Notes: generated by a model from the sequence alone, not told the origin. Positions 60,462-63,400 are shown, counted from the first letter of the stretch. The stretch: DNA of 64,000 nt from Methanobacteriota archaeon (GCA_963769885.1 CAVYNH010000005.1:119144-183143), one strand, 5' to 3'. Made by a program: numbers and translations.

Positions 60462-63400
60462 GAGCCAGCATGAACGGTTAGGAGCTCTAGGCTGAACATG
60501 TCGCCGAAGCTTCATGCGGACACCTGAGCCCTATCAAACGAATCTTCTATTCGAGTCCTACGATGGCTCGTCTCAGGGTGGGCTTCATGCTTAGATGCTT
60601 TCAGCATTTATCCCGTGCAGCGTGGCTACCCAGCAGTGCCCTGTCGGACAACTGGTAAACTAGAGGCTGTAGAGCCTTGTTCCTCTCGTACTAAAGGCTC
60701 TTTCCCTTCAACCATCAACGATTCCAGAAGTTAGCAACAAACCTGTCTCACGACGGTCTAAACCCATCTCACGATCCGCTTTAATGGGCGAACAACCCCA
60801 CCCTTGGCAGCTGCTGCACCGCCAGGATGCGGAGAGACGACATCGAAGTAGCAAGCCTCCAGGTCGATATGGGCTCTTGCTGGAGACGACTCAGTTATCC
60901 CCGGGGTAACTTTTCTGTTATCAATGAGCCCCACAAATGAGCTTCATTGGTTCGCTAGGCCCTGCTTTCGCAACGTGGATTGTTATTGGCCCAATCCGCG
61001 TAAAGCCACCTTATACCCTTGCATTCTACAGGAGATTTCTGACCTCCTTGAGGTGACCATTGGGCGCGCATGATACCTTTTCGTGCGCGTGGCGCCCCAC
61101 CCAAACTACCCACCTATCGGTGTCCTCTTTGACAAGTTAGTTATACGGTCAAGGAAGGGTGGTGTCCCATTGTCGACTCCACCTGAACTAGCGTCCAGGC
61201 TTCGACGTCTCCCACCTACGCTTCACAACCAAAACCGTACAACAGCGACAGGCTGTAGTAAAGCTCCACGGGGTCTTCGCTTCCTTCTGGAATGTACTGG
61301 ACTATGCGCCAGTAAGTCAATTTCACCGGCCTCCAAGCGGGGACAGTAGCGCTCTCGTTAAGCCACTCATGCAAGCCGCCAATTAAGCGGCAAGGTATTA
61401 CGCTCACATCTGTTACTTCAAAGACCTTCCATTATTGGGGGAAGGCGGACTGGCATTTCTGACAGTCTCCTCACGTCGCCATGAGGGTCGGACTATATCT
61501 TCACTCATCGCTGAGTGTTCGGCGTATAGTCTCTGAGGGGTCAAATTACTAGGTTGACTTCCCTGCTGATTGTCTGCACCAACAGATTATCACCAGATCA
61601 TGGTACTGTTGGATCCTCAGATGTTCCAGCAAATAGCCGAATTTTGTTAAGGCAACAGTACATTGTGTGGTTACCTTAAGAGGGTCATGGTTACCCCCGC
61701 CGTTTAGCGGTCCTTCGCCCCCTTGAACGAGGTTTTCAGATACCGCCACTGGGCAGGATTCGGCGACCATACACATCCTTTCGGACTTGCGGTCTCCTAC
61801 GTTTTTATTAAACAGTCGGAGCGCCCTAGTTACTGAGACCTGCTTTCTTCAAAGCAGGCACCCCTTATACCGAAGGTACGGGGCTGATTTGCCGAGTTCC
61901 CTCGCCAGGATTAAGCCGACACACCTTGGCCTTCTCAGCCAGGGGCACCTGTGTCAGTTCTCGGTACGGATACGCACACTACATCTCAACGCCCTTTTCA
62001 CGGGCACTCAAGCTCAGCTCAACCCGTCTAAAACGACAGGCCCATCGCGCTTTGGTCAGGTTCTCACCATGACGGTACTCCCCTGAGTTAATACGCTTAG
62101 ATAGGTAGACAAGCCTACAGAACCTACTCGAATGCGTCAAGCATTGAGCAAATGTGTGCATAGTACAGGAATATTAACCTGTTTCCCATTCGGCAACGTC
62201 AATTAAGGGTTGCCTTAGGACCGACTAACCCTCGACTGATGGACATCGTCGAGGAAACCTTGCCCTTTCGGTGGTAGAGGTTCTCACTCTACTATGCTGC
62301 TACTTTTGCCAGGATTCTCGTTCGAACGCGGTCCACCTGATCTTACAATCAGACTTCTACCCGCGCACGACGCCCCCCTACTCATCTCCTTTTAGGAGTG
62401 CTTATGTATCGGTGATTCGCTTAGCCCCGTCCATTTTCGAGGCATACAACCTCGACCAGTGAGCTGTTACGCTATCTTTAAAGGATGGCTGCTTCTAAGC
62501 CAACCTCCTGGCTGTCTGAGGTTATAAACACTCTTTGTTCTATGACACTGAGCGAACACTTAGGGACCTTAACACAAGGCTGGGTTGTTTCCCTTTCGGA
62601 CATCAAGCTTACCCCAGATGCCCTCACTACCCTGTTTCTACGATGAACACGCATTCGGAGTTCAACAAGGTGCCGAGGAATTTCTTCCCCTAAACACCCA
62701 ATTGGTGCTCTACCGCATGCTCCATCTCCACAGAGATCTACCTGCGGGTAGTCTCGGGGGGAACCAGCTATTGCCAGTCTAGATTGGTCTTTTGCCCCTA
62801 TACGCAGCTCATCCGAACAATTTGCACATTAGCACCGGTTCGGTCCTCCACCCCACTTTCATGGGGCTTCAACCTGGCCACGCATAGATCGGCTGGCTTC
62901 GGGTCTCGTGGTAATGACTACAGGCGAGCACACCTTGTCCCTCGTTACCTGCGGACATTTGCTTTCGCTACGGCTACGGACATTGAAGTCCTTAACCTCG
63001 CCACCACCAGGAACTCCCTGGCTCATTATTCAAAACGAACGATAAGACACTGCTCCACCAACTAAGTTGGGTTCGTCGCTTTCGCGCCTTATCAGTCTGT
63101 AACCATTTGATTTCATGCTCTTTGCACCTCCCGCAAGGGGTACTTTGCAACTTTCACTCACGCTACTATTGCACTATCGGTCTCGAGGAGTATTTAGGGT
63201 TGGAAGTTTATGCCTCCCGTATTCACGCGCGATATCCAACGCACGTTACTCTGGATACCTCAAAATCTCCCACTGCGTTACCTCTACAGGACTATCACCC
63301 TCTATGGTACCTCGTTCCAGAGGACTTCGAGTTGAACAGTTAGGGAGTAAAGAGGTCCAAACTCCACATCTCCCCGTACTCGTCGCACGGGGATTCGGTT

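Follow-up and report, generated by a model that had tools for sequence, protein, structure and literature searches.

The window, meaning the whole stretch of 64,000 nucleotides that was analysed, comes from an uncultured Thermoplasmatota archaeon and ends with a minus-strand rRNA operon, in which the sole 23S rRNA gene is interrupted by an intron at position 1931. The features of this region are the following, in window coordinates.

60299-60418, minus strand: 5S rRNA, downstream of the 23S gene in the rRNA operon
60458..63656, minus strand: archaeal 23S rRNA gene (RF02540, 2703 bits, full model 1-2987)
61405..61672, minus strand: group I intron, 268 nt (RF00028 match; relatives with an empty site are contiguous here)
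63812-63883, minus strand: tRNA-Ala, upstream of the 23S gene in the rRNA operon

For the host 23S gene the archaeal model RF02540 outscored the others of its clan; the gene lies on an uninterrupted 183-kb contig (C5) of a 7-contig MAG that is 92% complete and has a single 23S gene and a single group I intron. The end of this contig is 344 bases from the 23S gene, and MAG assemblies are weakest at contig ends. Contig and window end together just past tRNA-Ala (63884-64000 being the last stretch of the window), and the 16S gene lies off the contig, so that the rRNA operon has been split by the assembly.

Intron position i corresponds to window position 61673 minus i. In the RNA, the 5' exon ends with CTCTTAAGGT, the intron runs AACCAC...CAGATGTG and the 3' exon begins with AGCGTAAT; splicing would join the exon ends CUUAAGGU and AGCGUAAU. 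In intronless relatives (G020, G002, G036, G037, G038, G103 and many more) the empty site reads CTTAAGGT followed by AGCGTAAT, and these genes are contiguous exactly at the insertion point. Alignment of the boundaries leaves an ambiguity of one nucleotide, A beginning both the intron and the 3' exon; this is resolved because only 61405-61672 gives a U before the 5' splice site together with a G at the intron end, and it is this sole reading that sets the intron length at 268 nt. For numbering, an intronless relative was matched to E. coli 23S rRNA and the annotated gene was then read; in the E. coli sequence CCTAAGGT followed by AGCGAAAT, the T is 1931 and the A is 1932, which places the insertion between the bases equivalent to U1931 and A1932, or L1931. 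The contiguous empty sites and the comparison with E. coli thus confirm an initial annotation of the window, which had placed a 268-nt insert at these coordinates of an archaeal 23S gene and at this site. We take L1931 to be part of the conserved core of 23S rRNA, flanked by helices 69 and 71, where an insert of this length is presumably unlikely to be tolerated.

Anatomy and predicted splicing of the intron

The insert is matched by the Rfam group I model RF00028 (Intron_gpI) at 61469-61682 on the minus strand, with 77.2 bits (E 6.9e-18, full model 1-253) against a gathering cut-off of 50 bits, in agreement with its initial annotation as a group I intron. All 13 helices can be drawn with canonical pairs in the window intron, P2 being absent, and its elements are given below by intron position and, where it applies, by window position on the minus strand.

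P1 5' strand, 61670..61679, minus strand: exon UUAAGGU plus intron AAC, 10/10 canonical pairs including the splice-site U.G
P1 3' strand, intron 17-26, 61647..61656, minus strand: internal guide sequence GUUGCCUUAA
P3 5' strand, intron 32-37, 61636..61641, minus strand: UUCGGC, pairs with 150-155
P4-P5-P5a-P5b domain, intron 42-109, 61564..61631, minus strand: all pairs canonical
P4, intron 42-47 with 104-109: UGCUGG/UCAGCA
P5 (UCUG/CAGA, 4 bp), P5a (7 bp) and P5b (4 bp), intron 52-100
Q, intron 102-111: AATCAGCAGG
P6/P6a hairpin, intron 110-136, 61537..61563, minus strand: 27 nt
R, intron 137-148: TCAGAGACTATA
P7 5' strand, intron 140-148, 61525..61533, minus strand: GAGACUAUA, with A141 bulged
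P3 3' strand, intron 150-155, 61518..61523, minus strand: GCCGAA
P8 hairpin, intron 156-171, 61502..61517, minus strand: 6 bp, GCGA loop, 3 pairs with double changes
S, intron 172-183: AAGATATAGTCC
P7 3' strand, intron 176-183, 61490..61497, minus strand: UAUAGUCC
P9 hairpin, intron 187-204, 61469..61486, minus strand: 7 bp, GCGA tetraloop
P9.1 and P9.2 peripheral hairpins, intron 206-225 and 228-248, 61425..61467, minus strand
Omega G, intron 268, 61405, minus strand: last base; terminal GUG invariant in homologues

P1 pairs exon position -7 to intron position 3 with intron positions 17-26, its wobble being u(-1).G20, and the 5' splice site falls directly after the U at 61673, which is equivalent to E. 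coli U1931; the 3' exon begins at 61404, equivalent to A1932. In the initial annotation the 3' strand of this helix was named as GTTGCCTTAA, pairing with TTAAGGT followed by AAC, and both the helix and its U.G were located as described there, as were P3 (TTCGGC/GCCGAA), Q, R, S and the terminal G. A conserved GUGAUAAU segment lies on the 3' side of the P4-P5 domain. In P7, the G140-C183 pair is followed by the bulged A141 and then by G142-C182, the presumed guanosine-binding pair, a role that we assign by analogy with G264-C311 of Tetrahymena. A weak P10 of 4 bp, drawn by eye and including two wobbles, may form between intron bases 16-19 (U16-U19) and the AGCG of the 3' exon.

The thermodynamic optimum by itself recovers 54 of 70 nested pairs (z = -4.4 against shuffles), and the fold is further supported by covariation. 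GTDB species genomes were scanned for the exact R/P3' and S/P7' core pattern (16+16 nt), which yielded 31 loci, 20 of them full-length archaeal L1931 introns. The covariation alignment consists of nine ORF-less homologues of 254-339 nt from at least four archaeal phyla, with hosts among Thermoplasmatota, other Euryarchaeota-labelled MAGs, Altiarchaeota, Woesearchaeota and Pacearchaeota. In these nine, standard pairs occupy 93.3% of cells as opposed to 34-40% in controls with the 3' partners displaced by 1-3 columns, a measure that favours the fold, which was derived from the window sequence; counts of changes on both sides are free of this bias, and such changes are seen in 38 of 77 pairs versus 5-15 for the displaced controls. 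The observed values of pairing and covariation were reached by none of 500 shuffles. Compensatory changes are abundant in each of P3, P5, P5a, P5b, P8, P9 and P9.1, affecting 3/6 pairs in P3 and 6/7 in P9 (both with 100% of cells paired, and the P9 loop invariant) and 6/6 in P9.1, which has a conserved AGAAAU loop; P9.2 aligned less well than the other helices. No variation is seen in P7 or in the exon portion of P1, and P7 and the splice-site U.G are the same in 9/9 homologues.

By analogy with its family, the pre-rRNA would fold into a P1-P9 ribozyme, in which the end of the 5' exon, UUAAGGU, would be held by the internal guide GUUGCCUUAA, the splice site being marked by the U.G wobble. P7 would bind a guanosine from outside, which would attack the 5' splice site; the terminal G268 would then take its place in the same pocket, and the short P10 would align the 3' exon so that the exons could be ligated to give mature 23S rRNA. 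Splicing would be required for making ribosomes, because the only 23S gene carries the intron. Twenty sequencing runs were found (7 of RNA; wetland, peat, sediment and paddy), none of which clearly holds the intron, the best of the 20 containing at most 0.45 of the sampled words, which is about the share of words that lie in the two exon flanks.

Two other accounts of the insert have been weighed against self-splicing. The usual intron of archaeal rRNA is of the bulge-helix-bulge (BHB) type (introduction of PMC6125680), as the initial annotation had also said of the classic archaeal rRNA introns, and it might be supposed that the splicing endonuclease EndA excises the insert, its likeness to group I being irrelevant. 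At the true boundaries, however, the central 4-bp helix has 0/4 pairs, and at most 2/4 when shifted by 1 nt, the outer exon helix has 0-2/4 pairs, and what the insert does have is a complete group I fold with covariation. The BHB reading, whose motif could not be drawn at either junction, was rejected and can practically be dismissed. The insert could otherwise be a retained one, with a dead ribozyme, or lie in a defective rRNA copy or a chimeric assembly, a suspicion raised by the place of the operon at the end of a contig in a 92%-complete, 7-contig MAG. This is very improbable, given that the helices of the catalytic core are all intact with their conserved positions unchanged, that the 23S gene is the only copy and reaches 2703 bits over the full model, that the site is in the conserved core of the molecule as described above, and that the closest relative of the intron occurs within the same family; a dead element is unlikely because ribosomes would depend on removal of the insert from the sole 23S gene. 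It is with high confidence that the insert is read as a complete, endonuclease-less group I intron of IB4 type, located after the equivalent of U1931 in the sole 23S gene of a Thermoplasmatota archaeon, where assignment to the IB4 subtype is suggested by the shared site and by P7.

The endonuclease gene in related introns

The longest stop-to-stop frame in the 268-nt intron has 57 codons and is without LAGLIDADG similarity, and P6 is a 27-nt hairpin, so that the initial annotation was right to call the intron free of a homing endonuclease; it is incapable of homing by itself. It belongs to a lineage in which a gene for a single-motif LAGLIDADG_1 homing endonuclease occupies the P6 loop of other members. 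An extra ~330-490 nt (roughly a 425-nt insert) is found in 11 of the 20 full-length L1931 homologues, always in this loop, versus a P6 hairpin of 24-30 nt in all nine ORF-less forms. Ten of the 11 inserts encode homologous LAGLIDADG proteins with a single motif and the pattern ...ADNQQERL..W[IV].GF.DG.GCFH, and the protein of G016 matches PF00961 (LAGLIDADG_1) with 80.8 bits and resembles solved LAGLIDADG enzymes. The presence of such a gene in relatives of the same family and class agrees with the statement in the initial annotation that L1931 introns often carry one. Reading frames and ribozyme are interleaved: in seven ORF-bearing introns the ATG start codon lies within the 3' strand of P5, and in L034, L041, L042 and L046, which are intact and colinear, the frame runs through P7-P3'-P8 and stops in or next to the S element. 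In L032, L037 and L047 the LAGLIDADG frames are truncated to 113-150 codons, and L028 has an unrelated 97-codon frame in place of one; these four introns, from Woesearchaeota and Nanoarchaeota MAGs, are candidates for decaying homing endonuclease genes. Two endonuclease-bearing introns, L010 and L013, were missed by RF00028 at its gathering cut-off, because the ORF splits the model, and were found by matching of exon and core.

The L1931 region of the 23S gene is assembled in 41 of 197 genomes of the host's class. The site is empty in 36/41 and holds an intron with a LAGLIDADG_1 gene in 3/41, namely G016 and G107 (window's family; introns L042 and L041) and G040 (another family; intron L030), and an ORF-less intron in 2/41, that of the window and that of G121 (intron L040). 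All three states occur in genus g18, where G121 is ORF-less, G107 has the endonuclease gene and G103 is empty. The taxonomic labels of G040 disagree, its title being 'uncultured Halobacteriales archaeon' and its GTDB class that of the Thermoplasmatota-labelled relatives. G105, also of the window's family, has an empty L1931 site and, towards the 3' end of its 16S gene, another group I intron that differs from that of the window (L052 227-439, or G105:C273 ~1426-1638; RF00028, 50.2 bits, E 3.8e-11) and may be at SSU/1498, a site in the list of Nawrocki, Jones and Eddy (2018).

The initial annotation had suggested a minimal ribozyme left after ORF loss, and had proposed a phylogeny against other L1931 introns as a check. 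In the tree of ribozyme cores, the window intron pairs with the ORF-less L040 (86/88), the next nearest row being the endonuclease-bearing L041, and the endonuclease-bearing L031 is sister to the ORF-less pair L025 + L048 (90/71). About five changes of the ORF label are needed either way, and the tree, with good support for one of its 17 inner branches, does not distinguish gain from loss.

ORF loss in the window intron is plausible, and it is probable that its lineage lost an endonuclease gene and now stands late in the homing cycle. Of the two directions, loss is the more parsimonious: an ORF so closely woven into the core would have arisen once and then decayed and disappeared repeatedly, a course that also fits the classical homing cycle that Goddard and Burt are said to have set out in 1999. 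The alternative, which bears solely on the claim of ORF loss, is that the lineage was ancestrally ORF-less and that its relatives later gained a LAGLIDADG gene by invasion of P6 or by recombination. Consistent with this, P6 in all nine ORF-less forms is a neat hairpin of 24-30 nt with no coding remnant, and the tree, with its five changes, leaves room for a single origin of the ORF. Gain is nonetheless somewhat unlikely: the ORFs are homologous, occupy one identical position and begin and end in shared contexts overlapping the ribozyme core, features that make repeated independent gains hard to envisage. Decayed ORFs also exist (L032, L037, L047), and the sister relationship of L031 to L025 + L048 likewise speaks against gain. 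To go beyond ORF loss, and see in the host family f1 the entire homing cycle as it occurs naturally in archaea, with the window's ORF-less form persisting in the sole 23S gene because it is fixed and vertically inherited, deserves little credence at present, and a bolder version, in which the ribozyme that was kept has taken on a function for the host such as gating ribosome maturation, is unsupported.

Place among known introns

Group I introns were recognised late in archaea, as the initial annotation had it, with 39 of them described in 2018, of which 27 are IB4 and 15 of these are at LSU/1931 (Nawrocki, Jones and Eddy, 2018; NAR 46:7970, PMC6125680). About seven of the 15 LSU/1931 IB4 introns are without an endonuclease gene and measure 248-464 nt; those listed with '-' for endonuclease are IB4.1,.2,.3,.4,.5,.6,.22 and.24, ORF-less examples being IB4.1 of Ca. 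Nitrosotenuis uzonensis (281 nt), IB4.24 (248 nt) and IB4.5 (311 nt) (PMC6125680). In most LSU/1931 members P7 is GAGACUA/UAGUCC with the second base bulged (supplement of PMC6125680). The window intron has the same gene, the same site and an identical P7 with the second-base bulge, and it shares a size class with the ORF-less IB4 introns of that study, six of seven of which are 248-360 nt, a likeness drawn from the listed features. Just as in the relatives of the window intron, the ORF-bearing members described in 2018 have LAGLIDADG_1. The window intron is thus an ordinary further member of the published archaeal IB4 LSU/1931 introns.

Closest to it is L040 of the Thermoplasmatales-labelled G121 in the window's family, an ORF-less intron of 270 nt that is 84.7% identical in full length and 87% in the core, with the same helices and likewise no P2. 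L041 of G107, in the same family, shares the ribozyme and is 691 nt long, having in P6 a 161-aa LAGLIDADG ORF that is missing from the window intron. Differences between the window intron and both L040 and L041 are seen in P6a and the L1 loop.

The exact 16+16-nt R/P3' and S/P7' core is also common to the window intron and introns of bacterial MAGs, the hosts being Saccharibacteria, Gammaproteobacteria, Rickettsiales and Actinomycetes. L1931 is the site of several such introns (L022, L023, L027, L039), others being at L1917, L1923 or elsewhere; they differ in the domain of the host and in the 5' exon context, CCUAAGGU versus CUUAAGGU in the window. The intron family spans archaea and bacteria, as known; group I introns at L1931 and L1923 occur in bacteria and organelles, an example being those in the 23S gene of Thermotoga, attributed to Nesbo and Doolittle (2003), as cited in PMC6125680. 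In two of the bacterial MAG loci, L023 and L027, the 23S gene apparently has two neighbouring group I introns with the same core string as the archaeal ones, one ending just before AACGGTCCTAAGGT (~L1917) and the other beginning right after AACGGTCCTAAGGT at L1931. Archaeal BHB introns likewise interrupt rRNA genes and often have LAGLIDADG genes, but they are spliced by a protein enzyme at the BHB motif, in place of which the window intron has a ribozyme fold.

In the 2018 table Thermoplasmatota are not named, and the sole Euryarchaeota entry at LSU/1931 is a hypersaline assembly (PMC6125680); a literature search likewise found no paper treating group I introns of Thermoplasmata or Thermoplasmatota. 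L1931 group I introns are present in public Thermoplasmatota MAGs, and the present case adds Thermoplasmatota hosts to the phyla published as having archaeal IB4 LSU/1931 introns. Its importance beyond correct annotation is little: the 23S gene of this genome is to be annotated as two exons and a group I intron, and not as a gene with an unexplained insert. With empty, endonuclease-bearing and ORF-less states in one family, the introns of this group could serve in dating the homing cycle in archaea.
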